Assembly (NCBI GenBank): GCA_020351995.1
Contig: CP070674.1
Coordinates: 3,299,747-3,363,746 of the forward strand
Direction of reading: 5' to 3'
DNA: 64,000 nt
Origin: Candidatus Zixiibacteriota bacterium
GTDB lineage: Bacteria; Zixibacteria; MSB-5A5; GN15; FEB-12
Positions 467-25,203 of this stretch are shown piece after piece. The position numbers and the translations under genes were made by a program. Each line of letters begins with the position of its first letter. The first letter of the stretch is position 1. The notes below the pieces were generated by a model. The model had not been told where the DNA came from. It saw only the letters and a program-made list of their open reading frames with translations, and made no database searches.

Positions 467-474
467 GTATTGTA

Positions 475-1305: not shown

Positions 1306-1442
1306 CCAATTCACACCAAGCCCGGCTCCCAAGGCGACATAAGCATAGCTGAGTTTTGAAACATTGTCGGGGGTTGGTCCGTCTCATTGAGTATACCAAG
1401 TCAAACATCAGTATATATCTCAGTCCCAAAAAGGAGAACGTA

Positions 1443-6428: not shown

Positions 6429-6552
6429 GCAGCTGACTTCCATTTTCCGAGGGCGACCCCCGCCAGTTATCTTCTTGCGTTGCCCCAACATACACGAATC
6501 GAGCAAAAAACCTTGCGCGATCGAAACAAAGTGTTATCTTTTTTCGTAAACT

Positions 6553-6569
6553 GGTCTGTATTACAGACC
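6553..6569 (+). promoter_or_regulatory. Perfect 8+1+8 palindrome GGTCTGTA-T-TACAGACC, candidate operator upstream of the membrane-protein/wHTH operon
   Basis: Read directly. It lies about 25-40 nt upstream of the operon start. The paralogous operon also carries an upstream inverted repeat containing TTACAGA. Confidence 0.35.
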
Positions 6570-6594
6570 GGTATGTAAAGCAGATTTAGATCTT

Positions 6595-7221
6595 ATGGAG
6601 GAATATATGGCAGAAGACCTTGATTTGAAGCAGATTGAACGCAAGACTTACATGGCCTATCATCAGGACGGGCTCTGGGACCTTCTTATTGGGCTGGCCA
6701 TGATGAGTGTAATCCTTGATGTCATTCTCGGTGAGAGCGGCATTTATATTGTGGTCATCGCGGGAGCGGCAGGCCTGGTGCCTATGCTGAAAAAGGTCGT
6801 CACGCTGCCGCGTCTGGGCTATGTCAAGTTCTCGCCTAAACGGCAGTCGCGGGAGAAGCTGAACATAATCTTGCTCACTGTTCTGCTAACTATGACAGCT
6901 TTACTTGGGGCAGTTATGATGTCGGCTTATAGTGGCGATGCTGGCTGGCAGCGATGGATCAGAGATTTGAGACTTATCCCGTTCGGAATCGTGCTGACGA
7001 GTGTGGCTGCCGCTCTGGGGTTGCTCTGGGGAATTTGGCGTTGCTGGATATATGCCTTGTTGTCACTGGCCGTATTTGTCATCGGTCATATTTTCGAGTG
7101 GCGAATGACAATTCACTTTGCAATTCTCGGCTCGGTTCTGTTCCTGGTTGGGCTCGTCATGCTGATTACGTTCATCAACAAATATCCCAAGAAGGCTCCG
7201 GAGGCAGGTAATGACATCTGA
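6595..7221 (+). CDS. Membrane protein (about 5 TM); module 1 of a duplicated membrane-protein + wHTH pair
   Basis: Hydrophobic segments. The N-terminus EDLDLKQIERKTYMAYHQDGLWD is homologous to the 33704-34354 product. The alternative start ATG 6607 is preceded by GGAGGA. Confidence 0.6.
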   Translation: MEEYMAEDLDLKQIERKTYMAYHQDGLWDLLIGLAMMSVILDVILGESGIYIVVIAGAAGLVPMLKKVVTLPRLGYVKFSPKRQSREKLNIILLTVLLTMTALLGAVMMSAYSGDAGWQRWIRDLRLIPFGIVLTSVAAALGLLWGIWRCWIYALLSLAVFVIGHIFEWRMTIHFAILGSVLFLVGLVMLITFINKYPKKAPEAGNDI

Positions 7222-7598: not shown

Positions 7599-8234
7599 GT
7601 GTCTAAGTTCAAAGCAACGTTGAGAACAGATATGCCAGAGCCGCAACTACAGACATCCGAACCCTTTCTCCCAACCAATAACCACCGATTCTGGGAGCTT
7701 CTCGAACCGGAGCATGCCCGGGCGGAAGCATTCTGCCGGCAGCTGGTGGGTAATCGTGATGAGGCGGATGATCTCTATCAAGACGGTTTGCTGGCGGCTA
7801 TGCGGAAGTTTCACACTCTCAAGGATCCCGGCTATTTTCGAACCTGGCTTTACCGGATACTGATTAATCGGTACCGTAATCGGTTCCGTCAGCCGTGGTG
7901 GCGCCGACGGGTTCCGTTGACTTCCCAGTCGGAGAGTGTCGAGGCAGGTGCGGATCCGACCGCGCTGCACACCGCTCGCCGCTGGCTCAACCGGGCGATG
8001 GCGGTTCTCGCGGTCGATGAACGCGCGCTGGTCAGCCTGTATGAACTTGAAGGCTGGTCGATTGGCGATTTGTCCGCCATGTACCGGCGTCCTCCGGGGA
8101 CGATAAAAGCCAGGCTCGCCCGCTCGCGCCGCAAGATGCGCCGTGAAATAGAGCGCTATCTTGCCAGACACGAAGAAACACAAACCAATGGAGCCGCCCA
8201 TGCTTTTTCGCAAAGCCAGCCGTCGCCGGATTGA
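7599..8234 (+). CDS. ECF-type RNA polymerase sigma-70 family factor
   Basis: Region 2: DLYQDGLLAAMRKF...FRTWLYRILINRYRN. Region 4: LYELEGWSIGDLSAMYRRPPGTIKARLARSRRKM. The exact start is uncertain (GTG 7599 or ATG 7632). Confidence 0.85.
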   Translation: MSKFKATLRTDMPEPQLQTSEPFLPTNNHRFWELLEPEHARAEAFCRQLVGNRDEADDLYQDGLLAAMRKFHTLKDPGYFRTWLYRILINRYRNRFRQPWWRRRVPLTSQSESVEAGADPTALHTARRWLNRAMAVLAVDERALVSLYELEGWSIGDLSAMYRRPPGTIKARLARSRRKMRREIERYLARHEETQTNGAAHAFSQSQPSPD

Positions 8235-8937
8235 TCCGGCCAAATCCGAACGGATACTGAGGCAATCGTTTGATACGCTGCGTGGGAGCGCCCCGCGCGC
8301 GGCCACGCCGCTGTCGTTTATCAAGACCCGGCTTGGGGCTAAAGCGGCCCAGAAGACCTCCCGGAAGGAATCTATCATGTCGCGAGCTATGCAGATATTG
8401 GCCTCCCGCCCGAAAACGGGCTTTACTTTTGCCGTGTTTGTCGCAGTCCTACTCTTTGTCACGCTGGTGCCTTTTTCCTACACCAAGACTGTCGGCTATA
8501 CTGTCTCTTTCACCGGGCCGGATCAGGAGATGGCCGGTGACCCAAACGAGATTGTCGCCGCGATAGCGGCACTGGGTTACGATAATGTCACGGCCAATTT
8601 TAACTCGGATGGTATCGAGACCGTCTGGGATATCAAAGGACTGCCCGATTATCAGGCAGCAGTGACCGCCGCGGCGGCTTTTCGCACCCTGACCGGCGCA
8701 GACATCGAGCCGACAATAACACCGGTCTTAAGGGAAGTATCAGGGACACTTTACGCGCAGGTCAGAGACCACCTGATAGAAATCAGCGTATCGGTTGATG
8801 AAGCCGCTTCTGCTGAAGAGATCGAAGCCCAGATAAGAGCTCAGTTGATAGCCCAGGGCTTCGAACCGGCCAACATAAATGTGATCACCAACCAGGTAGA
8901 TAGCACGGTTTATATTGACCTGGAGATTGGCGAGTAG
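8188..8937 (+). CDS. Single-pass membrane protein, putative anti-sigma factor
   Basis: It overlaps the 3' end of the sigma gene. Short cytoplasmic N-terminus, one TM (FTFAVFVAVLLFVTLVPF) and an extracytoplasmic C-terminal domain. No zinc-finger anti-sigma motif was seen. Confidence 0.4.
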   Translation: MEPPMLFRKASRRRIDPAKSERILRQSFDTLRGSAPRAATPLSFIKTRLGAKAAQKTSRKESIMSRAMQILASRPKTGFTFAVFVAVLLFVTLVPFSYTKTVGYTVSFTGPDQEMAGDPNEIVAAIAALGYDNVTANFNSDGIETVWDIKGLPDYQAAVTAAAAFRTLTGADIEPTITPVLREVSGTLYAQVRDHLIEISVSVDEAASAEEIEAQIRAQLIAQGFEPANINVITNQVDSTVYIDLEIGE

Positions 8938-8967
8938 CAGAAAGTACCGCTTGCACGGATGACAAAA

Positions 8968-8996
8968 GGCGTGATCGAACAAGGTCACGCCTTTTT
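8968..8996 (+). terminator. Rho-independent terminator
   Basis: Hairpin GGCGTGA-(10 nt loop)-TCACGCC followed by TTTTT. Confidence 0.6.
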
Positions 8997-9203
8997 CATG
9001 TTACCTCGATCCGGTAACCGGGCGAGAAAGATATCATTCCGGTATTATGGTTGACTTTGAGTTGCCGGAATCTGATAATAGAGTATTGTTCTGCTGAGTC
9101 GGGTCAGGGCCAATTGGCTGCCGCCATATCATCAGACCGTCAGTTCAAATTGGAGGATCACCGACTTACGCTACACACCCGCTGACCAGAAAGGTCGATT
9201 GCG

Positions 9204-12672: not shown

Positions 12673-15600
12673 TTGAAAGCCGGTAACATGCAAGATCGCT
12701 CCGCAGCCAGCACTGCTCACAGATTATCGCTTCTGATAATATTCTGCTTTTTCTTTTCGGGACTGTCCGGTCTCGTTTACGAAATTCTATGGACAAGAAT
12801 GACTGTTTCGGTTGTGGGCGGGGCGCCGTTTGCTGTGGCGACGATTCTGACCGTTTTCATGGGCGGCCTCGGTCTGGGCAGTTATATAGCCAGCCGGACA
12901 ATTGACAGGATCAAGCAACCGCTCAAGCTGGTAAGACTTTACGGTATCCTCGAATTGTTAATAGGCGTCTATGGTCTTGCCTTTCCCTTGCTACTGTTGG
13001 TCTTCAAACCCATCTATGCCGTAATATATAATCAGCTTTTCGAGCATTTCATGCTCTATAATCTGCTTACTTTTGTAGCCACGAGCATTCTGCTTCTGGT
13101 CCCAGTGACCCTCATGGGGGCCACCCTGCCTATTCTCTGCCGCTTTTATGTTACCAGGCTCGGCCATCTCGGCACGCATGCCGGGAGGCTGTACGGACTG
13201 AACACGATCGGAGCCGCGGCCGGTTCGCTTCTCTGCGGTTTCTGGCTTATCAGCCTGCTGGGTATCTGGGGTACACTAGCGGTGGCAGTAGTGATCAACG
13301 CAATAATAGGTATAGTGACGGTGCTGGCCAGCTACCGAATGGAGCTACCGGAGTTTGATTATGAAGGAAATAAGGATGGGCCCGATGGTGATCTCGCAAA
13401 GCCGCGGCAGGAGTATCGCGGAGCGGTAGTTGGAGCTCTGATTATCTTTGCCGTTTCGGGCTATTGCGCCATGGCCTACGAAGTGATCTGGACCAAGTTG
13501 CTGGGGTTGGTCGTCGGTCCAACAACCTATTCGTTTACAATTGTGCTGGTAACGTTCATTGTAGGCCTGGCTTTTGGAAGTATTTTTTTCGGCTGGCTGG
13601 CCGATCGCACCCGCAACACAATCAGGCTTCTGATAGGCACCCAGATCGCGGCGGCTCTCTTCGCCCTGGGCGCAAGCCAGGTACTTGGCAGCAGCCAGTT
13701 ATATTTCGCAAAACTGATTTTCGTTTTTCAGGATCAGTTTACCCTTCGCACCCTGCTGAAGGGTGTTTCCCTTTTCGTTTTCATGATACTGCCGACGCTC
13801 TGCCTGGGCGCGACCTTTCCGCTGGTGGGAAAAATATATACCCAGTCCATTAAGAAAGTCGGTCACTCTATTGGCCGGGCATACGCTATCAATACGATCG
13901 GGGCAGTGCTGGGTTCATTTATGGCCGGCTTCATACTCATTCCCCTAATCGGCAAACAGAACAGTCTGAGCCTGGTAATCGGTTTCCAACTTGTCACGAC
14001 CCTGGCAGTAGCGATCCTTATGATTGTGAAGAACCGGGAAAAGATTGCCAGGTGGACTCCGTACCTGGCGGTGGCCGTCATCGGAACCGTTTTATGTTTT
14101 CAATACCCGGTGTTCAACCGTCATCTGCTGTCTTTAGGAAAGGCTTATCGCGTTAATGATATCGCCGTTGTTCTTCGCGGTGGCGGCTGGATAGACGCGT
14201 TAATCAACGGTGAGGAGATTCTATCCCGGATAGAGCGCGGAGAGTTGCTGTTCTTTGGTGACGGTATTGGCGGTTTCACAACCGTTCTCAGGAGCGAATA
14301 CCAGATGGGTGACACCCACTTTATCATGGCCAACAGCGGCAAGGCGGATGCCAGCACGGTGTCAGATATGTGCACTCAGACGTTATCGGCGCAGTTACCT
14401 CTTATCTTTCATCCCAACGCCAGCCACGTTCTTGTGGTCGGGCTGGGTTCAGGGGTGACCGGGGGCGAGGTGTTGCTCTACCCCGTAGATCGGGTCGATA
14501 TGATAGAAATCAACGAACAGGTAGTTGCCGCCAGTGATTACTTCCGTCCGTGGAATTACAACGTTGTGGATGACCCGCGCATCAACATGATAATACAGGA
14601 TGGTCGGGCTCACCTGGAACTGTCCAAAGAGACTTATGATGCTATCATCTCCGAGCCATCCAACCCGTGGATGGCTGGTCTGGCGGCGCTTTTCACCAAG
14701 GAGTACTTTGAGCTGGCCAAAGAGGCTCTCAATGACGGGGGCATATTTGTCCAGTTCATTCACTCATATCGGATGGACTGGTCCGCATTCGCTCTCGTGG
14801 GGCGGACCTTCGCACGCGTGTTCCCCAACAGTATAATGGTGTCGACGGCTCCGTCGCGGCTGGGTCCTGATTATCTGCTGGTTGGATTCAAGGGATCCGG
14901 CGGTCACAGGTTGGAGGTTGCTCAAAAGAATCTCGGGTACGCGCAGCGTTCGACCAATATCGCGCTTTCGGACGCTCGCCTGATATACATGATGATCGTA
15001 GCTGAGAACCTGCCGCAGCTTTTCGGCGATGGCCCGATAAATTCCGACGCCTCGCCCCTTCTGGAATTCGCCGCACCGAAGCTGATGTACAGTCACGGGG
15101 AGGCTATCGAAAGCACCATACACCAGCGTGGCGAACTTGGCGCAGCTACAGAGGAGATTTTGCGGCAGGTTTCCACGGACGTTGAGCTTCAGCTTGGTTA
15201 TACCGAATACGCTCTATCACTATTTTCACCATTTGATGGGATGGTGAACCTGGCGGTGGCCACACCCGAACAGAGGGATCGGTTCTTAGAACTCACCGAC
15301 AATTTTTTTGCCAGTCACTCCACAGACCTCAATTTTACAGTCGATGAGGCGCTGAAGAAGAGATGGCGAGCTGTGCAGCGGACGGTCATAATGAGCGAAA
15401 TCGAGTCTCTCCCGAATAAGGCGTTATCGTATTCCTATCTTGGGGACATAAATAATGCTGATGATATGCTTGATGAAGCCGTCGCGTGCTATCTTAAATC
15501 GCTGGAGTATGATTCCGAGAATGAGGCGGTGCAGACCAATCTTGGAGTCGCCCTAATGAGACAGGGGCGGGCGACCGAGGCTGTCGAGCGTTTTGAGCGT

Positions 15601-15990
15601 GCCCTGTCGATCAACCCTAACCTGTCGGAGGCCTACAGCAATCTGGGTCATGCCAGGTCAGTGCTGGGGGATGCTGAGGCGGCCGCCGACAACTACCGGA
15701 AGGCCATTGAAATCGACCCGGCAAATCTTATGGCGCTGAATAATCTTGGGCTGGCCTTGATGCAGTCGTCAGACATGGATGGCGCTATTGAGCTTTTCCG
15801 GAAGGTCATCAGGGTGAATCCGTACTCTCCAGAAGCCCACTGTCATCTGGGAGCAGCCCTGACACAGACAGGCCAGTATGAAGAGGCCATAAAGCACTTC
15901 AACGAAGCTCTTCGTTTAAGACCCGATATGCAGCAGGCCAAGGAAGGGTTAGAAAGGGCCGAGTTTTTCAGAGAAGTGCGCGGTCAATGA
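12673..15990 (+). CDS. Fused polytopic membrane domain + spermidine-synthase-like methyltransferase-fold domain + TPR repeats
   Basis: About 12 N-terminal TM helices. SpeE-like VLVVGLGSGVTGGEVL, DMIEINEQVV and DAIISEPSNPWMAGLAALFTKEYF. The C-terminal roughly 200 aa are TPR repeats. Confidence 0.75.
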   Translation: MKAGNMQDRSAASTAHRLSLLIIFCFFFSGLSGLVYEILWTRMTVSVVGGAPFAVATILTVFMGGLGLGSYIASRTIDRIKQPLKLVRLYGILELLIGVYGLAFPLLLLVFKPIYAVIYNQLFEHFMLYNLLTFVATSILLLVPVTLMGATLPILCRFYVTRLGHLGTHAGRLYGLNTIGAAAGSLLCGFWLISLLGIWGTLAVAVVINAIIGIVTVLASYRMELPEFDYEGNKDGPDGDLAKPRQEYRGAVVGALIIFAVSGYCAMAYEVIWTKLLGLVVGPTTYSFTIVLVTFIVGLAFGSIFFGWLADRTRNTIRLLIGTQIAAALFALGASQVLGSSQLYFAKLIFVFQDQFTLRTLLKGVSLFVFMILPTLCLGATFPLVGKIYTQSIKKVGHSIGRAYAINTIGAVLGSFMAGFILIPLIGKQNSLSLVIGFQLVTTLAVAILMIVKNREKIARWTPYLAVAVIGTVLCFQYPVFNRHLLSLGKAYRVNDIAVVLRGGGWIDALINGEEILSRIERGELLFFGDGIGGFTTVLRSEYQMGDTHFIMANSGKADASTVSDMCTQTLSAQLPLIFHPNASHVLVVGLGSGVTGGEVLLYPVDRVDMIEINEQVVAASDYFRPWNYNVVDDPRINMIIQDGRAHLELSKETYDAIISEPSNPWMAGLAALFTKEYFELAKEALNDGGIFVQFIHSYRMDWSAFALVGRTFARVFPNSIMVSTAPSRLGPDYLLVGFKGSGGHRLEVAQKNLGYAQRSTNIALSDARLIYMMIVAENLPQLFGDGPINSDASPLLEFAAPKLMYSHGEAIESTIHQRGELGAATEEILRQVSTDVELQLGYTEYALSLFSPFDGMVNLAVATPEQRDRFLELTDNFFASHSTDLNFTVDEALKKRWRAVQRTVIMSEIESLPNKALSYSYLGDINNADDMLDEAVACYLKSLEYDSENEAVQTNLGVALMRQGRATEAVERFERALSINPNLSEAYSNLGHARSVLGDAEAAADNYRKAIEIDPANLMALNNLGLALMQSSDMDGAIELFRKVIRVNPYSPEAHCHLGAALTQTGQYEEAIKHFNEALRLRPDMQQAKEGLERAEFFREVRGQ

Positions 15991-16020
15991 CCCAGCTAGC
16001 AAAGATTAAAAGGGCAACCA

Positions 16021-16437
16021 TCAGAGCTTGCGAACACGGCAGTAAACTGCCCCGCTATACTCGGAGAAATCCAGAACAACTTTCCAGCTTCCCGGCGTAC
16101 CTGCCTGAGAGTATTCCGTACCGGTAGATTTCAGTTCACTTTGATAAACCTGGGTGCCATTGGCATCGAACAGATAAATTACTCCGGTACCGTTGCTACG
16201 TCCGGATGAATGTTCGATCGAGGCAGTTTGCCCGGTACAGTTCCAATCATAAGTTAACCGGGTTGTAACAAGATAGACGTTGCTGGCGCGGAAAGTGAAT
16301 AGATCCTCGCTGTTGGTTACCTGGGGATCGAAGGAATTGAGCGGGTTATCTTCACCGCATCCCGCCACAGTGGCGCTGGTGACAAGTATAAGCGCAATGG
16401 CAAGAAGATGTTGCGACGTTTTCATTCCTGGTCTCAC
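16021..16437 (-). CDS. Small lipoprotein, function unknown
   Basis: Lipobox LVTSATVAGC after a signal peptide. Lies directly downstream of, and on the same strand as, the AsnB-like gene. Confidence 0.55.
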   Translation of the reverse strand: MRPGMKTSQHLLAIALILVTSATVAGCGEDNPLNSFDPQVTNSEDLFTFRASNVYLVTTRLTYDWNCTGQTASIEHSSGRSNGTGVIYLFDANGTQVYQSELKSTGTEYSQAGTPGSWKVVLDFSEYSGAVYCRVRKL

Positions 16438-16530
16438 ATGGTTGCGTTATTGGCTGCTAATTCCAATACAAGTATAACTCTTATACATCTTATATGCAAG
16501 TACGACTCGCTCGGAGATAACGGAGGAAGA

Positions 16531-18357
16531 TTATTGTGGCGAGTCACTCTGGCGGCACCAGATTTCGAAGCTGCCGATCTTAATGATTTCCGGGGTGTAA
16601 TTGGCCTTGCCGGAAAAGTGAAGGTTCATCATCTTCTCAAGAGCGGAGCCGTTATAATAATGCCGGCCACGGGTAGTGGGGTCCAGAATGAGGTTTCGAG
16701 CGAAATCTTTCAACTCGCCGGTAAACCATTTCCGGTGATGGATCCATTCGCTTCTTCCGACAAAGATCCTGCTTATCCCTGTCAGGTCTCCTGAGCGGCA
16801 CACCGGCAAGGCCCAGCGAGGCAGTTTCTCCCAATTGTAGACGGAATCGACAAAGTTGAGCGTTTTGTAATATAGTTTTGCCAGATTGAGACCTCCGCCA
16901 GCCAGCTCGCCCCGGTTGGTGGGGATTCCGGCAAGGTGTGGAGTGTTCTTGAGATATATTTTTTTCTGAAGCAGGGCGGTATCTTCAATACGAGGCGCCC
17001 GGAGGGTGACGTCAATTAAGCGATTGTCCATATAGGGCGTACGTACGGTCAGGGCGGTCATTTCCTGGGTGTGCCGGGCACCTTCGAGCTGCGGGAGCTC
17101 CTCGCGCAAGAGCGCTGAACGGTCCTTCCACCGAATTTCACTAACGGTGTTATGATAGTGCCGTTTGAAATCGGTGCTGAAGATACCAAGATTCGGTGAA
17201 CGGTCCTTTAGCATGGTTACGCCCCGGATGATCTGAGAGCCGTATTTCCCGGTCAGACGTACCCGGCCAAAGTCCCTGGCCGCCAAGTTGAGGTAATACT
17301 CATGACAGGTGTTCAGGCGGGCAATGCCATCGGACACATAGATGGCCTTTGTTGCCCAGCGTTCGAAGTTATCCAGAAAATCTCTACCCAGCCGAATAAC
17401 GCCCCAGGAGTTGCCGTTCATTGCGGCGAGTCTGCGGGCGATTTTGACATCGTGGCTGTCACGATACATGCCCCCGAAGGTAAACAGGGGTGGTGATAGA
17501 CCCCGGTGCGAGAGGACGCTGAGAATGGCCCGCGTATCCAGCCCCCCGGTGAATGACAGCGCTGTTATCTGAGGTGTATAGTAGTCGGCCACGACAGACT
17601 CAAAGACGCCAATGACGCTATCGAGAAACTCGTTCGGAGCCAGACGTGGTTTCTCGAGCTCAGATTCGGGACCCCAATACTCGCACGATAGACAATCCCC
17701 ACCCTTTAACCTGAACGAGGTGGAAATAGGGAATCTCCGAACTTCCTTATAGAATGTGGCATTGTTGAGAAGGCAGTCGTGTCGGAATGAGTGCACCACA
17801 GCGGTGGTATCAAGAGTCAGTTTGAGGTCCGGTATTAGTTTGAAACATTTTACCTCGGGGGCAAACATCATTCCGCCATCGGGCAACCGGGCGTGATAGA
17901 ATCTCTGCATCCCGAACCTGTCGTTGGCCACAAGGACGGAACGGTCCCGTTTGTCGATTATGAGCAGGTTAAAGTAGCCGTTCAGCCAACGGAGCATGGT
18001 TTCGCCGTGCTGTTCATAGAGTCGGGCGGCGATTTCACTGTGGTTGTGCGGATCGCAAAGACTACTATGGGCGTCTCCCAGCTTGCCGAGCAGCTCCCTC
18101 ATCCCAAACAACTCGCCGCTGAGCAGGCACTGGATAGTGCCGTCACCGTTGCTTCCGATAACATCGGCAGCGTAGTCATGGTCAAGGTAAACACGGCAGG
18201 CCTGAAGTCCCAACTCGGGAGATTCCATGAAACGAGTTCGATAGAACGGCTCATGGGAGATGAGCTCTGCCATTTTTCGGACAAGCTCGCGGTTGCGGTC
18301 GAACACATGGGGATTGTCCTGGACAATTACGATAAGGCCCGGCATAATAGCCCCCAC
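16531..18357 (-). CDS. Asparagine-synthetase (AsnB) family protein with a degenerate glutaminase N-terminus
   Basis: NGYFNLLIIDKRDRSVLVANDRFGMQRFYH (Ntn domain) and ALSFTGGLDTRAILS (variant PP-loop). The N-terminus reads MPGLIVIV where AsnB has MCGI, so the nucleophile Cys is missing. Start is GTG 18357 or ATG 18345. Confidence 0.75.
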   Translation of the reverse strand: MGAIMPGLIVIVQDNPHVFDRNRELVRKMAELISHEPFYRTRFMESPELGLQACRVYLDHDYAADVIGSNGDGTIQCLLSGELFGMRELLGKLGDAHSSLCDPHNHSEIAARLYEQHGETMLRWLNGYFNLLIIDKRDRSVLVANDRFGMQRFYHARLPDGGMMFAPEVKCFKLIPDLKLTLDTTAVVHSFRHDCLLNNATFYKEVRRFPISTSFRLKGGDCLSCEYWGPESELEKPRLAPNEFLDSVIGVFESVVADYYTPQITALSFTGGLDTRAILSVLSHRGLSPPLFTFGGMYRDSHDVKIARRLAAMNGNSWGVIRLGRDFLDNFERWATKAIYVSDGIARLNTCHEYYLNLAARDFGRVRLTGKYGSQIIRGVTMLKDRSPNLGIFSTDFKRHYHNTVSEIRWKDRSALLREELPQLEGARHTQEMTALTVRTPYMDNRLIDVTLRAPRIEDTALLQKKIYLKNTPHLAGIPTNRGELAGGGLNLAKLYYKTLNFVDSVYNWEKLPRWALPVCRSGDLTGISRIFVGRSEWIHHRKWFTGELKDFARNLILDPTTRGRHYYNGSALEKMMNLHFSGKANYTPEIIKIGSFEIWCRQSDSPQ

Positions 18358-18456
18358 TATTTTACAGGATTGAACCCATCTTCGCCGAAAGGGGACGGGG
18401 TTCCTGCGTCACCTGGCAATTTAAGGAACGGACCGGGTTTGGGCAATGGTTTTTCT
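18316..18456. repeat. Direct repeat copy A (leader plus first codons of the AsnB-like gene)
   Basis: Hand alignment to 20198-20333. The core 18361-18456 vs 20241-20333 is about 74/93 nt identical. It includes a perfect 22-mer GGTTCCTGCGTCACCTGGCAAT (18399-18420). Confidence 0.8.
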
Positions 18457-18540
18457 ATAGATATCTCTTTCTCATTGTTTGTACAGAAGTTGTCGAGTAT
18501 AATTGGAGTAATTCAATTCCGGCAAGTTGGGAGGAATACC

Positions 18541-19968
18541 ATGAAATCCACCGTGTTTGTAATCACTTTGATACTTTCAGTGCTTCTGCTTAGCGCCTCA
18601 ACAGCTACCTCGCAAGAATGGGGAGAAGTCACCGATGCTGAGTGGCAAATCGGTCCGCCTCCAGATTACCCCCAATCAGGGGCAGTTGTTATTTTCGATA
18701 TCGGACAGGCTACGGCCGAAATTAGGGGGCTTACACTGGAGCGGCATGTCCGGATGAAAGTTTTCAGTGATGACGGTGTCAAGGATATTGAGAAGGTCGA
18801 GATCGAGCACTTCTATTATGACAAGCTGTTCGACTTAAAGGCTCAGGTTATTCGGCCGGATGGTTCATCAGTTAAGTTTGACAAGGATGACTTCGAGATC
18901 ACCAAGAAAGGCGCCGTGAGAATCGCGACGTTCCGCTTTTCCAATGTTAGGGCCGGTGACATCTTGGAGTACCAATACAAAATTGATTACTATGGAGGTT
19001 TCGACAAACTTGGCCCGGAAAAGTACTTTCTGTTCAGCCAGGAAGTACGCTACTCCCAGTACCGGGCAAGAAAAGAGCGCGTCATGTACGTCTGGGACAG
19101 TGATAAGTTAAAGAACGTGTCCAATATTCCCACATGGTTTTTCGACCATCCAGTATTCTGCCTCTCGTCGACGTTTTCTGCAAAGCTGGGTTCCGATCTC
19201 GACTATGTATTTTTCACCACCAATGTCCCGGCAAACAAAGTGGAACCGGTGAGCAAGCGCATCAAGTTCATGACGGCAACTGCCTATAAGAGGCATACAT
19301 GGCAATTGGAGAATATCAGGCCATTTATCCCGGACAGCTCGGACATTTATAGCGAGGAGGTTCGGCGTAGCGCCCTATACTTCCAATTATTATCGACTCA
19401 AGGACAAAATCGCGTAATCCATGCGGTGTGTGCCGATAAACATCTACAGTATCTGGGCGAGAGCTTCCAGGGGTACTTGCACGAGTATGTAGCAACGACC
19501 AAGAAAATGCGAAATCTCGCGAGAAAGCTTGCCGGAGCAGGCGAGACACCAAGGCAGAAGGCCGAGATAATATATGACTGGGTTGTTTCAAACTATAGCG
19601 TCGATAGCAGCGGCTACGTACTTCGTCCTACGCAGAAAAATCTAAAGAAGGTTTTCACAGACAAGGAGGCCGCGCCTTTTGAATTGAATATATTGCTGGT
19701 GGAGATGCTCAAGATCGTCGGGTTTGACGCCTGGCAGGTATTGATCAGCACGCGCGACAAGCTCCCTTTCAGATATACAGGCAAGTTTAACCACATGCTG
19801 GCGCTGGTGGATATCGAAGGTGAGAGAGTGCTACTGGACGCCTCGGGCAAAGGATGTCCGTTCGGGCTGCTTCCTTCACCGTCAGTGGTGGCCAAAGGCG
19901 TTCTGGTGGATTATAATAACTCCCGGCCGATCGGCATATCCGGACAGGAGTGCAAGACGGAGATGTAG
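18541..19968 (+). CDS. Secreted DUF3857-like / transglutaminase-like domain protein
   Basis: GGGAGGA RBS and signal peptide MKSTVFVITLILSVLLLSASTATSQ at ATG 18541; the track ORF from 17893 is an antisense run-on. C-terminal IYDWVVSNY...FNHMLALVDIEGERVLLDAS resembles the transglutaminase core His/Asp, but the Cys position reads EAAPFE. Confidence 0.55.
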   Translation: MKSTVFVITLILSVLLLSASTATSQEWGEVTDAEWQIGPPPDYPQSGAVVIFDIGQATAEIRGLTLERHVRMKVFSDDGVKDIEKVEIEHFYYDKLFDLKAQVIRPDGSSVKFDKDDFEITKKGAVRIATFRFSNVRAGDILEYQYKIDYYGGFDKLGPEKYFLFSQEVRYSQYRARKERVMYVWDSDKLKNVSNIPTWFFDHPVFCLSSTFSAKLGSDLDYVFFTTNVPANKVEPVSKRIKFMTATAYKRHTWQLENIRPFIPDSSDIYSEEVRRSALYFQLLSTQGQNRVIHAVCADKHLQYLGESFQGYLHEYVATTKKMRNLARKLAGAGETPRQKAEIIYDWVVSNYSVDSSGYVLRPTQKNLKKVFTDKEAAPFELNILLVEMLKIVGFDAWQVLISTRDKLPFRYTGKFNHMLALVDIEGERVLLDASGKGCPFGLLPSPSVVAKGVLVDYNNSRPIGISGQECKTEM

Positions 19969-20197
19969 GATACGTCAACACCGTGTATCGTTCTAGTTCC
20001 GCTTCGGCTTGGGATCCTACCTGGATTCTCCGGTTACGGTACTACCTATAATTGCCTGCCGCCCCGTCCGCTTGAGAAGGGCGAGACGATGATCAGCGTG
20101 GCTGGGCACTTTGATCTGCGCATGATACGTTCCCTGGAAATGCATTCTGATACCAAAGCAAATATCGGAGCCGGCGGCAATTGCGAGGCCGTGACGC

Positions 20198-20333
20198 AGC
20201 CCGGACAGCCACGGTATGGCCTGGCAAAACAGGCCACGGCTTCACAGGACTAAACCCATCCACGCCCACAGCGCTGGTTCCTGCGTCACCTGGCAATCTA
20301 AGTAACGCGCCGGGAGTGGGCACTGGTTTTTCA
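20198..20333. repeat. Direct repeat copy B, starting about 20 nt after the radical SAM stop codon; carries a relic of the AsnB-like 5' end
   Basis: Same orientation as copy A, with the identical 22-mer at 20276-20297. On the minus strand LPGHTVAV aligns with MPGLIVIV of the AsnB-like N-terminus. Confidence 0.75.
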
Positions 20334-20353
20334 GCTTTTAGTATGGTGGCTAC

Positions 20354-21412
20354 CTAACCCGACACAGAAGAGTCAGAAGGTGGTGAAGCACCGCAGATGG
20401 CTACGAAGGGGTCGATTCTTTCCCGCGTGCCATAGCATTCATCGGCGGCCGCCGGGCAGCCACCGCGACACAGCTTTGCCATTGGATGCCGGCAACGGCG
20501 GCATTCCTTCGGCTCCGGCGCCCAGAAGTCGGTTGTCCTGGCACTATTGACAATATCAGCGAATGTTTCCCTGCACAGATCACCCAGCACCACCGAGGAA
20601 TGATTGCAAGGTCGCACCAGACTATTCCAGCCAATCGTGTAATAAGATTCTGAGCCTCCCCTTGGGCACCATCCAAAACTAAGCTTCCGGTATCGCTGGG
20701 GGTCCACCAGGCAGGGCGGGATTGGAACTGAGACAGCCACAGATATATCGTACTTTTCTGCCGTTTTCTCCGCCGCATCAAGGCTGGCCTGGAGCATGGT
20801 TGCGTCCGGAACAATCTGATCCGCCAGTGGAAGACACCGACGGCTCAGATTTACGCGATTCAACATTATGCCTTCGGCACCAAGTGCCAGTCCGAGTTCA
20901 ATTGTACGGCTTACGTCATGAGCGTTAAGCCGGGTTACCACCAGAGCCAGTACGAACCGTCCGCCATGCCGCTCCAGGCGCACGAGTCCGTCCAGAATGC
21001 TATCAAAAACGACCCGACCGGCAAGCCGGTTGTGCAGGTCGGCATCGGCACTGAAAAGCGTGACCTCAAACGCCGTACCAGTCGGAAATCTCTTAAGGCG
21101 AGCCTCGCCCAGCAGGGTTCCGTTGGTAATTACGACTGCGTTGAGACCGTCATCAGCCAGATCGCAGACGATCTCAGGCAGTTCTTCGTGAAGAAACGGC
21201 TCGCCGCCGGAGATCGCTACGGTGCTGAGCGGTGCGTCGTCCCTGACCTTACTGACCAGGTCACGGACTTCGCACCGCTCTAACCTACGGGGTTGATTTG
21301 CCTTGTCGGAATTGTGTTGCCAGTAATTGTAACAGTGGGCGCAACTGTTGTTACAGGCAGCGACAAGCTCAACGACAACCCGGTTGATGTCGCACTTAGC
21401 CTCTGATTGCAC
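20354..21412 (-). CDS. Radical SAM enzyme with C-terminal SPASM domain
   Basis: CX3CX2C (CNNSCAHC) at residues 20-27, and GGEP. The C-terminal Cys pattern C...GW..C...C...CRRCRHPMAKLCRGGCPA is typical of auxiliary SPASM clusters. Confidence 0.85.
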   Translation of the reverse strand: MQSEAKCDINRVVVELVAACNNSCAHCYNYWQHNSDKANQPRRLERCEVRDLVSKVRDDAPLSTVAISGGEPFLHEELPEIVCDLADDGLNAVVITNGTLLGEARLKRFPTGTAFEVTLFSADADLHNRLAGRVVFDSILDGLVRLERHGGRFVLALVVTRLNAHDVSRTIELGLALGAEGIMLNRVNLSRRCLPLADQIVPDATMLQASLDAAEKTAEKYDISVAVSVPIPPCLVDPQRYRKLSFGWCPRGGSESYYTIGWNSLVRPCNHSSVVLGDLCRETFADIVNSARTTDFWAPEPKECRRCRHPMAKLCRGGCPAAADECYGTRERIDPFVAICGASPPSDSSVSG

Positions 21413-21818
21413 CCCGGATCTTTCTTGCGAACTGTGGGGAGATGATCTTTTCGCGGACCATGTTTCGTATCAACGCCAGTCGCATTTCGTCTCCAAGCCT
21501 TCTCATCAGATCCGGTGCCGGGATGTAGCAGACTATAATCGGCCATCGTATCAGCCGTCTTTCCGGGGTGGGCCAGGTGCCGATGGCGACAATTTCAGTT
21601 TTTCGCCGTCTGGAGAACACAACAACTACATCTTTACCCACCAGCCGAGCGATTTCGGCCCTTGATGCGAAGGTTCCGATCGGTATTTCAGATCGGCGTC
21701 GCCCTACGATCACGTAGTACTTGCCGCGCTGGTACAGCACTTTGCCCCGCTTGGCTGTCCTCTCGGGCATCGGAACGGTGTCAATCGCAACGCTCGGACG
21801 TTTCCGCTTCAGTTTCAT
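21396..21818 (-). CDS. Basic 140-aa protein with an internal tandem repeat, function unknown; translationally coupled to the radical SAM gene
   Basis: GGAGGAG lies 6 nt upstream of the ATG, and the 3' end overlaps the rSAM start by 17 nt. Repeats are VIVGRRRSEIPIGTF and VVFSRRRKTEIVAIGTW. Confidence 0.6.
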   Translation of the reverse strand: MKLKRKRPSVAIDTVPMPERTAKRGKVLYQRGKYYVIVGRRRSEIPIGTFASRAEIARLVGKDVVVVFSRRRKTEIVAIGTWPTPERRLIRWPIIVCYIPAPDLMRRLGDEMRLALIRNMVREKIISPQFARKIRGAIRG

Positions 21819-22226
21819 AATGCGCTCCTCCTTTTTTAGGATCTTAAGTACCCGCCTTGACTTTCTTGTTTACTCTCCGCCGAGCGAAGCGAAAACTTCC
21901 TTAGAAAGAATGTGAGCGGGTACTTTATCCGGGTCGCTGAAAAAGTTGTTTCCGAGAGCGAAGCCAATTGCTCATATCCGGTCTTCGGCGGAAACCCCCG
22001 CACCTGGTGCAGTCCGATGTTTACCTGGTGCTCAGCAATGTTTGAAAGGGCGCTGTTGATTCTTAAGGCGAGTTGAAATTATTCCCCTGCCCGGAAGTTA
22101 AACCGACGTTCGCGCATGTCAAGCTGTTTTTTCCTCTATCACCGGGGGCCCAAGGAGACCCATCAATAACCGGACGTAACAGTTACCAGCACTTCAGGCG
22201 ACAATAGGTTATCAAAGTCCGGGACG

Positions 22227-23015
22227 TCAAAAGTGTTCTTTAAGCCAAGCGATGCGGTCGGGTGGTCCCGAGAGTTTCTCCGGCCAGTTCTCCCCCATGT
22301 TTTTCCGCGAAACCACGCATCGCACGCTAACGATATTCTCCAGCGAGTCAAAAGTCTCAATACCGCCGTACTGCTTCTCAAAAAAGATCGGGTAGTTGTA
22401 GCGGCTGGGCAGAGGTTTCATGTTCATGCGAGGTATCAGAAGCAGGGCACCGGTGAGGGCGGTCTGATGCAAAAAGATTCGCTTGTTGGCATCAGACTGG
22501 CACATCTCAGTCAGGCTCGGGTCGTTGTAAAGTATCTCGAAATCCTTGACCCAGCGGCGCAGGATTCCTTTTTCGGGCCGGGCCACAATCAGCCCGCAGT
22601 GGAAGTAGGCGCGAATGGTTTGCTTGTCGGCCGGTGTTACCATGGGAAAGAGCATATCCTCGTCAATCGACAGCAGTCCGTAAATGCGCTCCCAGAAGGG
22701 GTCCGGGGATTTTTCGAGAAGAGAACCCGAACGGTTGTGCATGACCGGGACGTAGGCGAAATCGACATCATCGGAAAGGTTGAAATGTGAGGGTTCGTCA
22801 ATTATAACGGTATCTTCATCCAGCCAGATAAGAATCTCGGTTTGCCCCTCGGCGGCGGTTTCCGCCTCGCCGGCGGCATATACTTTTCCCGCATAATAGA
22901 ACCACTTTGCTTCCTTCGGCACGGGCACCATTCTGATGTCAACTCCCTGAGAGCCAACCATCTCGAGCATTGGGATGTCACCCAGTTTCAGGCTGCTGGG
23001 GATATACAGCCGCAC
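22227..23015 (-). CDS. Hypothetical protein, possibly a GT-A-fold nucleotide-sugar transferase-like protein; true start probably upstream
   Basis: IWLDEDTVII is a DxD-like motif after a beta-strand. The frame stays open and protein-like to about 23168. AAGGGAGG at 23139-23146 precedes ATT/CTG at 23135/23132. Confidence 0.4.
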   Translation of the reverse strand: MRLYIPSSLKLGDIPMLEMVGSQGVDIRMVPVPKEAKWFYYAGKVYAAGEAETAAEGQTEILIWLDEDTVIIDEPSHFNLSDDVDFAYVPVMHNRSGSLLEKSPDPFWERIYGLLSIDEDMLFPMVTPADKQTIRAYFHCGLIVARPEKGILRRWVKDFEILYNDPSLTEMCQSDANKRIFLHQTALTGALLLIPRMNMKPLPSRYNYPIFFEKQYGGIETFDSLENIVSVRCVVSRKNMGENWPEKLSGPPDRIAWLKEHF

Positions 23016-23198
23016 TGGCGCTTGACTGAGGGCACCGGCGAAAGTCCGGACGCTTTTTGTTAAACGAGAAACATTTGCGAGGTCGTCGGCCGACTCGATG
23101 TAAGTGGCAAAGACATACTTGTGAGGGTCCAGAATGTCCTCCCTTCGTTCTCTACCCCTTGAACCATTCTAACTTTACGAAACTGAGGGCGGAGAGTT

Positions 23199-24392
23199 TC
23201 AGGCCGAGACGAGCCGATGGACCGTTATCTCGGACTTTGCCCCAATTCTGATTTGCGGGCCCCAATAACCGGTACCCCGACTGACATATATGAGGGTGTC
23301 ATCATGTTTATGAAGCCCGGAGATATACGGTTGAGTCATGGCGGCCAGGACATGATAAGGGAAGTATTGTCCGCCGTGGGTGTGACCTGATATTACAAAA
23401 TCGTAGCCCGCCCGCGCGGCCTCGAAAATGCTCTTCGGCTGGTGGGCTAACAGGATCTTTGGGCTGGAGTTGGCAGCCCCCTCGATAGCCTTACGCGGGT
23501 CGGAAAGGTGTTGCGCAGAGAAGCCACCGCCGGAATAGTCGGTGACCCCGGCCAAGACTATCTGCGCTTCTCCCTTACTTATTATCCGATGCTCATTAAG
23601 CAGGACATCGAAGCCCAATCGTGCGGTTTCCTCTAACCACGGCTGGACGCCGGAATAATATTCGTGGTTACCGGTGATGAAATACCGGCCATATGGAGCT
23701 TTGAGATCAGCCAGTGGCGCGACATCTCCCCCGAGTTGCCTGACCGAACCATCGACCAGATCGCCGGTCAGGGCAATCAGGTCAGGTTTGAGTTCGTTGA
23801 CAGCCCTGACAACCGTTTCGATGAATGGCCGTCTGACGGTGTGACTGACATGCAGATCGGTTATTTGGACAATTCGAAATCCTTCGAACTGTTCCGGGAG
23901 GCCTTTAATCGGGATATCCAGTTCGATGACATCGGGACGCCGCATCGCCTGATACATGCCATAACCGATTAATCCGGAAGTAACCCCCAGGAGGCCGAGG
24001 TTAATTGAATTCACCAGTATCCGGCGCCGCTGAGGATCAACGGTTTCGGAGACAGTATCTCCACTTCCGAGGGTCTGGCCGGCGAAGAAGATGCTTTTCT
24101 TAATGGCCATATAAATGAGCCAGCCGACGTCCTTGAACAGAAGCAGAGCGAAAAGCAGCGTGAGAAACCCGAAACTCAGATAGCCGACCCACGCAGCGAT
24201 GTCCACCGCAGTACCTTCAATTCCGTTGAAGCGCATGATTACAGGTACGAACGGCAGAAGGGCAAATATCACTAACACCACCCAGAGGATAAGACTCCAG
24301 GGCATTCCGAGCGCCGCCGGGATGATCATCCGCCACCCAATGTAGCCGTACATCAGGGACAAAACCGTTATGACCACGAAGAAAAACGACAT
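23199..24392 (-). CDS. Membrane-anchored metallophosphoesterase (calcineurin-like)
   Basis: N-terminal TM helices, then ITDLHVSH, LTGDLVDG, GNHEYY and GHTHGGQ. Confidence 0.85.
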   Translation of the reverse strand: MSFFFVVITVLSLMYGYIGWRMIIPAALGMPWSLILWVVLVIFALLPFVPVIMRFNGIEGTAVDIAAWVGYLSFGFLTLLFALLLFKDVGWLIYMAIKKSIFFAGQTLGSGDTVSETVDPQRRRILVNSINLGLLGVTSGLIGYGMYQAMRRPDVIELDIPIKGLPEQFEGFRIVQITDLHVSHTVRRPFIETVVRAVNELKPDLIALTGDLVDGSVRQLGGDVAPLADLKAPYGRYFITGNHEYYSGVQPWLEETARLGFDVLLNEHRIISKGEAQIVLAGVTDYSGGGFSAQHLSDPRKAIEGAANSSPKILLAHQPKSIFEAARAGYDFVISGHTHGGQYFPYHVLAAMTQPYISGLHKHDDTLIYVSRGTGYWGPQIRIGAKSEITVHRLVSA

Positions 24393-24456: not shown

Positions 24457-25203
24457 CTAAAAGCTCCAGACGGTGCCGACCAGAATGTAGTGCACCATGG
24501 TAAAGTTGTACACTTCGTCGTTGTCGGCCCCGCCCTCCAAGAGACGGTAGCCGACCTTTAGAGCTGCCCGTTCGGAATATTTTGTCATAAAGGCCAGGAA
24601 CACATCCTCAGCTCTTCCTTGCGGGGCAGCCAGGGCATCGCCTTCGAGCAGAATGTAAGTCCGTCTTCCGAGTTGAAGCTCAAGTTTGAAATTTATTAGT
24701 GGCACGAAGCCGGTATTAGTTTTCTCACCGACTTTTCCGTCGCCCCTGAGGATAATGGCGGCATCGCGGACTTTGGCCGTGACTCCAAGGCCCAGATTCA
24801 GTTTCTCCCTCTTTATGATATCATACCGATAGGTGAGCCGGTAAGAGTCGAAGCGGTAGGTTGCCTCGAGTTCGGAGCCTGCGTCAAAGATCTGATTCTG
24901 GAATATTATCGCACGATTCACGGTTCCGTCGGAGCGCAGCCGCAGAGGAGCAAAAAGTACGGAGAGGGTATGGCGCTCAGCGGGCATATAGCCTAAGCGA
25001 ACTCGTCCAACGATCCGGGGGTGTGAGTTAAGATCGTCTGTCAACGAGATATCAGTACCGGTGTCGCCTGGTATCCGAACATCATTGTATCCATTGAGCG
25101 CAACCCCGGTTTCGAAGTCGATTGACCAGGTCATTTTGGATTGAACCGGGATCACCGCCAGAGCCAGCATGGCAACAGTCATTAGAGAAATGCGAGCTAA
25201 CAT
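24457..25203 (-). CDS. Outer-membrane beta-barrel protein
   Basis: Signal peptide, amphipathic strand periodicity and a C-terminus of VWSF. Confidence 0.6.
   Translation of the reverse strand: MLARISLMTVAMLALAVIPVQSKMTWSIDFETGVALNGYNDVRIPGDTGTDISLTDDLNSHPRIVGRVRLGYMPAERHTLSVLFAPLRLRSDGTVNRAIIFQNQIFDAGSELEATYRFDSYRLTYRYDIIKREKLNLGLGVTAKVRDAAIILRGDGKVGEKTNTGFVPLINFKLELQLGRRTYILLEGDALAAPQGRAEDVFLAFMTKYSERAALKVGYRLLEGGADNDEVYNFTMVHYILVGTVWSF

Follow-up and report, generated by a model that had tools for sequence, protein, structure and literature searches.

Gene content of the locus

The window analysed here is a stretch of 64,000 nucleotides from a Candidatus Zixiibacteriota bacterium. Within it, an AsnB-like gene and a radical SAM (rSAM) gene with a small partner lie on the minus strand. 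Between them are a plus-strand DUF3857 gene, the relic of a second plus-strand gene and two similar stretches of DNA, referred to as copy A and copy B, see Table 1. The fragment of AsnB-like coding sequence within copy B is referred to as AsnB'.

Table 1. Features of the locus, in window coordinates.
Feature	Position	Strand	Remarks
AsnB-like gene	16531..18345	-	604 aa; GATase_7 and Asn_synthase domains
Copy A	18318..18455	-	promoter-like region and 5'UTR of the AsnB-like gene, with its first 9-10 codons; aligned to copy B
Copy A, A-rich box	18455-18447	-	
Copy A, -35-like TTGCCC	18446-18441	-	followed by a 17-nt spacer
Copy A, -10-like TAAATT	18423-18418	-	
Copy A, 5'UTR and ATG	to 18346; ATG 18345-18343	-	
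DUF3857/transglutaminase-like secreted protein gene	18541..19968	+	475 aa; divergent from the AsnB-like gene; Pfam
374-aa gene relic	20008..20181	+	codons ~13-68; lipoprotein-like; between DUF3857 and copy B
Junction of gene relic and AsnB' fragment	20179..20199	.	
Copy B	20200..20332	-	pseudo-copy of the AsnB-like promoter, leader and first codons
Copy B, A-rich box	20332-20324	-	
Copy B, GTGCCC	20323-20318	-	
Copy B, TAGATT	20300-20295	-	
Copy B, exact 22-mer	20297-20276	-	
Copy B, degenerate start TTG	20227-20225	-	reads LPGHTVAVR
Two-gene module	20354..21818	-	140-aa gene (21396-21818) overlaps the radical SAM/SPASM gene (20354-21412) by 17 nt; Pfam
262-aa gene	22227..23015	-	right-hand synteny anchor; homology to L005 resumes

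The AsnB-like protein scores well short of the cut-off for each of the named NCBIfam families. Leaving aside the genome of the window itself, the named homologue nearest to the DUF3857 protein (51%) carries the label Zixiibacteriota. The best homologues of the rSAM protein are ~60% identical, and the named ones are labelled Terriglobia, Blastocatellia or other Acidobacteria. A scan of genome contigs with the rSAM protein returned distant rSAM proteins only (26-42%), which were not informative.

Alignment of the two repeat copies

A BLASTN comparison of the two regions places the repeat where the preliminary description had put it, and the alignment reaches well beyond the 22-mer. Copies A and B form one co-linear alignment with 103 of 138 columns identical (75%) and five gap columns, i.e., one 3-nt and one 2-nt indel. 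The E-value is 6e-24 in a pairwise search and 4e-22 against the whole window, and the stricter default scoring retains 18361-18455 against 20241-20332 (80% over 95 columns, E 2e-11). The exact 22-mer is held in an ungapped core, 18399-18455 against 20276-20332, which is 88% identical. The leftward extension described earlier and its translations, MPGLIVIVQD in copy A and LPGHTVAVRA in copy B, are correct.

Runner-up matches to the repeat within the window have E-values of at least 0.5, and a degenerate promoter pattern matches copy A and copy B only, with 0 matches expected. Thus, this is a two-copy repeat and not a dispersed element. A metagenome scan with the same pattern gave 0 matches. The copies are spaced by 1877-1882 bp, and no similarity between them was found past 18318/20200 or 18455/20332; to the right of copy B, beyond 20332, lies the 3' end of the rSAM gene.

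At the junction, 20179..20199, part of the 22-mer core seems to recur in inverted orientation (17/21, with one gap of 3 nt). The corresponding minus-strand match has an E-value of 0.36 in a 360 x 360 nt search and is suggestive only.

The leader of the AsnB-like gene

The pattern AAAAC-n-GTTGC / 17 nt / TAnnTT is present in the leaders of the window, L005, L006, L007 and L014, and in looser forms in L008 and L009/L010. The motif, its spacing and an SD-like GGGG box are found upstream of seven orthologous AsnB-like genes. The boxes and the spacing of copy A are kept across the orthologues while the intervening sequence varies freely; the spacer between the boxes is saturated (4/17 between copy A and L005, by eye). 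DNA homology between the window and L005 stops at 18456. We interpret copy A as the leader native to the AsnB-like gene, comprising a promoter-like region, the 5'UTR and the gene start, where its promoter status is read from conservation. Backed by seven orthologous loci, it is a candidate promoter/leader architecture for an uncultured phylum, the Zixibacteria.

The boxes TTGCCC / 17 nt / TAAATT agree with the sigma-70 consensus at 8 of 12 positions and were not called by a promoter scan with a threshold of 9/12. The scan did call another site on this strand, 18525-18496, a short way upstream of copy A; it matches at 9/12 positions and by eye is not conserved in L014. A sigma-54-type reading of TGGCA/TTGC was rejected, as its spacing is wrong (by eye). 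A terminator scan found none.

The repeats could also be read as two copies of a small peptide gene, for example for an rSAM substrate (MPKPGPFLKLPGDAGTPSPFGEDGFNPVK), or of a structured regulatory RNA, and this we regard as very improbable. One minus-strand frame is open in copy A, copy B and L005, and the 3-nt indel keeps this frame. However, the frame closes early in L014, its putative start codon is the -35 box itself, and copy A and L005 share 72% of their DNA but ~41% of the amino acids (by eye), which is not a coding pattern. On both strands, small-peptide frames were found not to be conserved in L014, L005 or L006. For RNA, an Rfam search of 15500-23500 at a permissive threshold gave no match at E <= 5. 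The consensus fold of five leaders (alifold) reaches -4.1 kcal/mol with no meaningful covariation, and single-sequence folds of the two copies are no better than shuffles (z -0.4 and +0.7).

Synteny and the probable ancestral locus

The closest syntenic relative is L005. Both sides of the locus are syntenic; five of the seven shared genes are 81-84% identical at the amino acid level and the other two 60% and 75%. The slot between them is filled by a 374-aa and a 187-aa gene in L005, and by DUF3857, rSAM and the 140-aa gene in the window. The syntenic locus of L007, like that of L005, has no rSAM gene.

A remnant of the 374-aa gene is still present in the window. In L005 the intact orthologue, the 374-aa gene, runs divergently from the AsnB-like gene; the remnant, located between DUF3857 and copy B, matches it with 58% identity over 48 aa (tblastn, E 9e-12), 55% over 58 aa in a relaxed search (E 3e-15) and 72% over 150 nt of DNA (E 6e-22). 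The first in-frame start codon of the remnant does not come before 20089. Divergence from L005 at third positions is 0.39, against 0.42-0.56 in intact genes. A search of 19900-22400 for a relic of the 187-aa gene or for further AsnB-like sequence gave nothing above noise.

On the related contig L014, a DUF3857 gene of 73% identity likewise lies divergently beside the AsnB-like gene, and the contig's DNA is continuously homologous to window 18089-19958 (70%). The order is AsnB-like / leader / DUF3857 / 187-aa gene, with one leader copy on the contig and 97 nt available 3' of DUF3857, where the 187-aa gene begins. Since L014 has this arrangement without rSAM, DUF3857 is, judged by synteny, native at its position and was not inserted between duplicated junctions, as had been proposed.

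Based on three lineages, one of which (L014) is a 2-kb contig, the ancestral order would have been AsnB-like(-) / leader / DUF3857(+) / 374-aa lipoprotein gene(+) / 187-aa PuhB-like gene(+) / 262-aa gene(-). The position of the relic between DUF3857 and copy B places the breakpoint inside the 374-aa gene and makes the AsnB'/copy B/rSAM/140-aa block the newcomer.

The same comparison bears on whether the repeats are ends or attachment sites of a mobile element carrying DUF3857 (attL/attR, a long target duplication or a MITE-like element). Direct repeats with an identical 22-bp core do flank one gene, whose GC content is 47-49% against 52-57% in the flanks. However, no integrase, transposase or terminal inverted repeats occur between or beside them, and the flanked segment consists of DUF3857 and the gene relic only, with no recombinase gene. 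The window has two copies only, the metagenome pattern scan found none, and in L014 DUF3857 is in place with a single leader on the contig. The repeat is instead the orthologous leader of a chromosomal gene, so a mobile origin is very improbable. That the repeats are not target-site duplications had been noted before, and it holds: they are ~135 bp long and 75% identical, without inverted-repeat termini or a transposase domain between them.

Probable decay of copy B

Among the leaders, that of copy A is nearest to copy B (76%; L005, 58%; L014, 50%), as expected for a copy that arose within the lineage of the window and decayed afterwards. The SD-like GGGG box is lost, and six of the eight coding differences are non-synonymous, in a motif, PGLI[VI][IL]VQ, that is almost unchanged among the orthologues. 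The earlier reading of copy B as a relic of an AsnB-like leader and 5' end is thereby supported.

The decay is, however, uneven. In the promoter elements, i.e., the boxes and the first 19 transcribed nt, 38 of 40 positions are identical to copy A, compared with 33/49 across the SD box and the codons (post hoc, Fisher p = 0.001) and 65/98 in the rest of the alignment as a whole (p = 0.0002). A dead relic should decay evenly, so this counts against a purely dead one. It can be speculated that copy B is alive, as an orphan promoter under selection that is co-regulated with the AsnB-like promoter. The predicted minus-strand transcript would be antisense to the gene relic and DUF3857, and possibly reads into the AsnB-like gene, for which copy B would be a distal second promoter. 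Consistent with this, five of the seven differences in the promoter half fall in the spacer, a perfect 22-nt run inside an alignment of such identity has a permutation p of 0.03, and the interrupted identity suits selection better than one gene-conversion tract. However, the single -35 change strikes the TTGC kept by every orthologue (GTGC in copy B), no intact ORF lies downstream and there is no special RNA structure (z = -0.4). Moreover, the partition was made post hoc on 138 columns, and ortholog-conserved and variable columns do not differ significantly in copy B (78% vs 70%, p = 0.34). A live copy B, which would be a duplicated promoter that has survived the gene it belonged to, therefore seems unlikely to us. 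As part of the history favoured below, copy B is probably a non-coding, decaying duplicate of the same ~135 bp.

The radical SAM module and the AsnB-like gene

The 140-aa gene and the rSAM gene are a self-contained two-gene module, found among the syntenic relatives in the window only. A homologous partner protein (48% and 29%) is identically placed in L011, L012 and L013, while L097 and L098 have small upstream genes of 127 and 103 aa in its place, matched by position. None of these five homologous modules, which lie in unrelated contexts, has an AsnB-like neighbour, and none of 89 AsnB-like loci (9 closer loci and 80 metagenome loci) has an rSAM homologue. The undisrupted rSAM-AsnB arrangement, for which a search of relatives had been proposed, was found in neither set, and the repeat is no evidence for the functional link that the preliminary description drew between the two enzymes.

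The proposed history started from an ancestral 140-aa-rSAM-leader-AsnB-like operon of linked enzymes, into which ~1.8 kb with DUF3857 was inserted with duplication of the junction. Copy B does set rSAM right upstream of a leader and the first AsnB-like codons, and an rSAM gene older than the duplication or crossover would mean that this arrangement was present in a donor allele at the least. However, L014 has DUF3857 in the same position without rSAM, L005 and L007 are syntenic without rSAM, and the L005 slot holds other genes. An insertion of DUF3857 also leaves the surviving 374-aa relic between it and copy B unexplained. The AsnB-like gene owns a conserved promoter-like element, and what separates rSAM from the AsnB' fragment is likewise a promoter-like element; the absence of co-occurrence adds to this. 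As the ancestral state this operon is largely refuted, and the history built on it is improbable. There is likewise little chance that a 140-aa/rSAM-SPASM/leader/AsnB-like block was once a working unit, in this lineage or a donor, with copy B as its fossil. If it was, the AsnB-like amidotransferase, the radical SAM enzyme and the small partner would act in an undescribed modification pathway. The findings leave current understanding unchanged, and their main value is corrective: the repeat is unfit as evidence of cooperation between the radical SAM and AsnB-like enzymes.

Proposed history of the rearrangement

Along the window, the relic (codons 13-68) comes first, then AsnB' from codon 10 back to codon 1, and then the leader. 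In the L005 reference order the leader comes first and the 374-aa gene after it, so the window order is a circular permutation with a head-to-tail join. Distal before proximal sequence is the signature of a segmental duplication junction or of an unequal or one-ended crossover.

We suggest that, in the window lineage, an illegitimate join fused the 374-aa gene, at codon ~68, to a copy of the AsnB-like gene, at its codon ~10. Such a join could have formed where two units of a ~1.88-kb segmental duplication met head to tail, or two alleles could have exchanged DNA in an unequal or one-ended (homology-facilitated illegitimate) crossover. The horizontally acquired 140-aa/rSAM-SPASM module would have taken the place of all that once lay beyond copy B, namely the remainder of the 374-aa gene and the 187-aa gene. 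The order of events and the recombination mechanism are what we infer from this arrangement; microhomology at the join of relic and AsnB' was not established. The 374-aa relic looks younger than the AsnB' fragment, and one event that produced everything at once may be an oversimplification.

As the sequence is a metagenome-assembled genome, an assembly chimera with its join at the repeats was considered. However, an assembler cannot be misled by copies of 75% identity whose longest identical stretch is 22 bases, the contig spans 3.6 Mb and both sides of each junction are backed by independent homology, which makes a chimera highly implausible. Taken as a whole, a native leader in copy A, a decaying duplicate in copy B, an illegitimate join and replacement by the module are probably the correct explanation, and the repeat pair is an ordinary genomic scar of an old local rearrangement.

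Comparison with known systems

Like bacterial promoters of the sigma-70/sigma-A kind, copy A has two short boxes, GTTGC and TAnnTT, with a spacing fixed at 17 nt, and an A-tract upstream of them; further similarities are a 5'UTR of ~70 nt and a G-rich box that precedes the start codon by 6-8 nt. The Bacteroidota-type variant of these promoters has TTTG at -33 and TAnnTTTG at -7. Copy A differs in that it matches either consensus poorly (8/12 to TTGACA/TATAAT).

The relic left by the join at codons ~68 and ~10 is like the novel joins of segmental (tandem) duplications in bacterial chromosomes. The repeat spacing equals the unit length, and the duplicated promoter and 5' fragment decay afterwards. 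However, two complete adjacent copies of the unit are not present: A/B similarity ends at 18455/20332, of the second unit no more than the initial 133 bp are left, with foreign genes in place of the remainder. Tandem duplications described so far are mostly recent and unstable, whereas the copies in the window are old and 25% diverged.

Homology-facilitated illegitimate recombination, with one homologous and one illegitimate end, is described from naturally competent bacteria and from E. coli conjugation (PMC3240628). It would give the structure of the window in one step, with a homologous anchor at the 262-aa/Metallophos side, an illegitimate join in the 374-aa gene, the 140-aa/rSAM genes as foreign cargo and a stretch of donor leader between. 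The window differs from the described cases in that no donor allele with rSAM upstream of the leader was observed.

In a study of T6SS clusters in Vibrio cholerae, an incoming module reportedly recombines beside a conserved gene and leaves fragments of resident genes or duplicated conserved stretches as a record. Orphan immunity genes in such clusters (PMC5361080) are an example of sequential displacement arrays. Unlike these arrays, the window retains a promoter and a 5' fragment rather than a functional orphan gene, and it records one round and no array. It is a dated example of a two-gene rSAM module entering a variable slot between conserved genes.

The diverged repeat and its surroundings

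The two copies of the repeat, copy A at the 5' end of the AsnB-like gene (18318-18455) and copy B next to the radical SAM/SPASM (rSAM) gene (20200-20332), form one co-linear BLASTN alignment with 103/138 identities and five gap columns. The E-value is 6e-24 in the pairwise comparison and 4e-22 when the search covers all 64 kb of the window. An ungapped core (18399-18455 and 20276-20332) is 88% identical and includes an exact 22-mer. When the sequence was read directly and aligned, the coordinates, indel, 22-mer and translations of the preliminary description were all correct. There is no third copy in the 64-kb window, where the next BLASTN matches have E-values of at least 0.5, and a degenerate pattern made from both copies matches only at copies A and B, with zero sites expected.

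Comparing the window with itself also returns a longer diverged direct repeat, 39686-40100 versus 40951-41365 (423 columns, 73%, E 2e-30), probably two paralogous genes or domains, and a 40-nt inverted repeat, 53386-53425 versus 58283-58322, which is 87.5% identical with its arms about 4.9 kb apart.

Genes around the repeat in the window, which comes from a Candidatus Zixiibacteriota MAG (contig of 3.6 Mb), and location of the 140-aa/rSAM module in the window and at five other loci
Locus	Feature	Coordinates	Strand	Remark
Window	TPR / spermine-synthase protein	12673-15990	+	
Window	138-aa protein	16021-16437	-	
Window	AsnB-like, GATase_7 + Asn_synthase	16531-18345	-	far below every NCBIfam family cut-off
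Window	DUF3857 / transglutaminase-like secreted protein	18541-19968	+	
Window	radical SAM / SPASM	20354-21412	-	
Window	140-aa protein	21396-21818	-	17-nt overlap with rSAM
Window	262-aa protein	22227-23015	-	
Window	Metallophos	23199-24392	-	
Window	248-aa protein	24457-25203	-	
Window	module	20354-21818	-	
L011	module	468-1914		
L012	module	1062-2583		
L013	module	7679-9047		
L097	module	1673-3080		
L098	module	5681-7041		

Copy A is a candidate promoter and leader

The AsnB-like gene was compared with its orthologues in L005, the closest syntenic relative (84% amino acid identity), L006 (75%), L007 (66%), L008 (65%), L009/L010 (56%) and L014. A common architecture precedes the start codon of every orthologue: an A-rich box with GTTGC, a 17-nt spacer and TAnnTT, the two sites reading TTGCCC and TAAATT in the window. 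The 5'UTR that follows, about 70 nt long, is poorly conserved, and the ATG/GTG/TTG start is preceded at 6-8 nt by a TGAAAyAGyGGGGC box. The window and L005 have kept the boxes, while their spacers are saturated (4/17 identical, by eye). From this conservation we infer that copy A is a candidate promoter and leader of the AsnB-like gene. Its hexamers match the sigma-70 consensus at 8/12 positions, and the promoter scan made no call there.

A coding element was also considered, but the single frame that stays open in all of A, B and L005 is interrupted in L014. In that frame A and L005 are 72% identical in DNA and about 41% in amino acids (by eye), and the repeat does not appear to be coding. 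Nor is it a known or structured RNA.

Within the 85 nt that separate copy A from DUF3857, a 9/12 match to the sigma-70 consensus lies on the minus strand (18525-18496), not kept in L014 (by eye). On the plus strand, TTGTTT and TATAAT separated by 17 nt (18476-18505, by eye) could be the DUF3857 promoter.

Copy B is a decayed duplicate

Copy B is 76% identical to A, 58% to L005 and 50% to L014, while A and L005 are 72% identical. As it is closest to copy A, copy B arose within the window's own lineage once this had split from L005, and then decayed. With the orthologues as outgroups, the changes between A and B fall on B's side: TTGCCC became GTGCCC, TAAATT became TAGATT and the GGGG box was lost. 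In the first nine codons 6/8 differences are non-synonymous, within a PGLI[VI][IL]VQ motif that is nearly invariant among the AsnB-like orthologues, and no gene follows copy B. The first proposal, that copy B is a relic of an AsnB-like leader and 5' end, is supported.

The decay is uneven. Copy B retains 9/9 positions of the A-box, 5/6 of the -35 box, 12/17 of the spacer, 5/6 of the -10 box and 19/19 of the first predicted transcribed nucleotides. The promoter elements without the spacer (38/40) differ from the Shine-Dalgarno and coding part (33/49, Fisher p = 0.001) and from all the rest (65/98, p = 0.0002), in a post hoc partition of a small sample. The perfect 22-nt run has a permutation p of 0.03, and ortholog-conserved and variable columns do not differ significantly in copy B (p = 0.34). 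Judged by this pattern, a live orphan promoter under residual or continuing selection would fit better than a single conversion tract.

DUF3857 is native and a second gene has left a relic

L005 shares its gene order with the window on either side, through the 248-aa, Metallophos and 262-aa genes and through the AsnB-like, 138-aa and TPR genes. Amino acid identity is 81-84% for five of the seven genes in common, 60% for the 138-aa gene and 75% for a partial 131-aa gene. Between the 262-aa and AsnB-like genes, L005 lacks rSAM, the 140-aa gene and DUF3857, and instead has two genes divergent from the AsnB-like gene, one for a 374-aa lipoprotein-like and one for a 187-aa PuhB-like protein. DNA homology covers 16020-18456, up to the outer end of copy A, and starts again at 22227. 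The only island in between, 20025-20174, corresponds to codons 17-66 of the 374-aa gene (72%, E 6e-22), and the protein-level match spans 20008-20181 (E 3e-15). Thus, a plus-strand relic of the 374-aa gene follows the DUF3857 stop codon and precedes copy B. No start codon occurs in its frame before 20089, and its third-position divergence is 0.39, versus 0.42-0.56 in intact genes. It seems less decayed than the AsnB-like fragment in copy B, and the two relics may have arisen at different times.

From the TAG that ends DUF3857 (19966-19968) to the end of this relic (20181, plus strand), gene and relic share one reading frame, which stays open for about 94 codons. This is probably a coincidence, but more distant DUF3857 homologues have about 670 aa, versus 475 aa here.

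L014, a 1969-nt contig from another relative, carries the AsnB-like gene (-), leader, DUF3857 (+, 73% amino acid identity) and the start of the 187-aa gene (+), with continuous DNA homology (70%) to 18089-19958. DUF3857 is therefore native in its position divergent from the AsnB-like gene, and this equivalent position in L014 contradicts the earlier proposal that it was inserted between duplicated junctions. Most parsimoniously, the ancestor of the three lineages would have had the AsnB-like gene, leader, DUF3857, 374-aa, 187-aa and 262-aa genes. Another sign of plasticity upstream of the AsnB-like gene is seen in L010, a single metagenome contig, where two transposase genes (IS1595-like and ISL3-like, 450-2122) lie directly upstream of the orthologue; the otherwise identical L009 lacks them.

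No support for a tie between the rSAM module and the AsnB-like gene

The closest rSAM homologues are only about 60% identical, and the named ones are labelled Terriglobia, Blastocatellia or other Acidobacteria. In each of the five contexts examined, a small gene (103-169 aa) stands just before the rSAM gene, with a 17-nt overlap in four and adjacent in L098. In the three loci tested (L011, L012 and L013) its product is homologous to the 140-aa protein of the window (48%, 48% and 29%). The small protein has no Pfam or NCBIfam match; it could be a putative substrate or partner of the rSAM.

The flanks of the module differ in every locus. None of the five contexts has an AsnB-like gene nearby, and no rSAM or 140-aa homologue is found in nine closer AsnB-like loci or in 80 metagenome AsnB-like loci (about 0.8 Mb). 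The 140-aa/rSAM pair forms a module of its own, which has entered a variable slot, and the sequence between rSAM and the AsnB-like fragment is the AsnB-like gene's own promoter-like element. Therefore, the repeat is not the independent evidence of a functional link between the two genes that had been suggested, and the inference of such a link is not supported (co-occurrence in 0/5 module contexts and 0/89 AsnB-like loci).

Between the 140-aa and 262-aa genes, a 408-nt stretch has no counterpart in L005; it contains a 21-nt tandem duplication at 22002-22043 (ACCTGGTGCAGTCCGATGTTT / ACCTGGTGCTCAGCAATGTTT, 76%). Inside the rSAM coding region lies a 23-nt inverted repeat with an 8-nt loop (21227-21280, 87% complementary).

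Possible origin of the repeat

The inferred ancestral plus-strand order is AsnB codons 10 to 1 and leader, followed at a distance by codons 1 to 68 of the 374-aa gene. At copy B, codons ~13 to 68 of the 374-aa gene come first, then AsnB codons 10 to 1 and leader. The order at copy B is circularly permuted, and the novel join lies at ~20182-20199. Such a join could have arisen through a head-to-tail segmental duplication of 18318-20199, a unit of ~1.88 kb that agrees with the spacing of the copies (1877-1882 bp), or from two alleles through a crossover that was unequal or one-ended (homology-facilitated illegitimate recombination, PMC3240628). On the far side of copy B, the 140-aa/rSAM pair stands in place of the remainder of the second unit and of the 374-aa and 187-aa genes. 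If the duplication preceded the arrival of rSAM, the latter would never have adjoined an intact AsnB-like gene; in the other order, a DUF3857-bearing allele would have recombined with a donor allele in which rSAM lay immediately upstream of the leader. At the join, about 20 nt look like part of the 22-mer core in inverted orientation, a weak match (E 0.36, 360 x 360 search) that would fit template switching. The repeat pair is the scar of a rearrangement that duplicated a candidate promoter.
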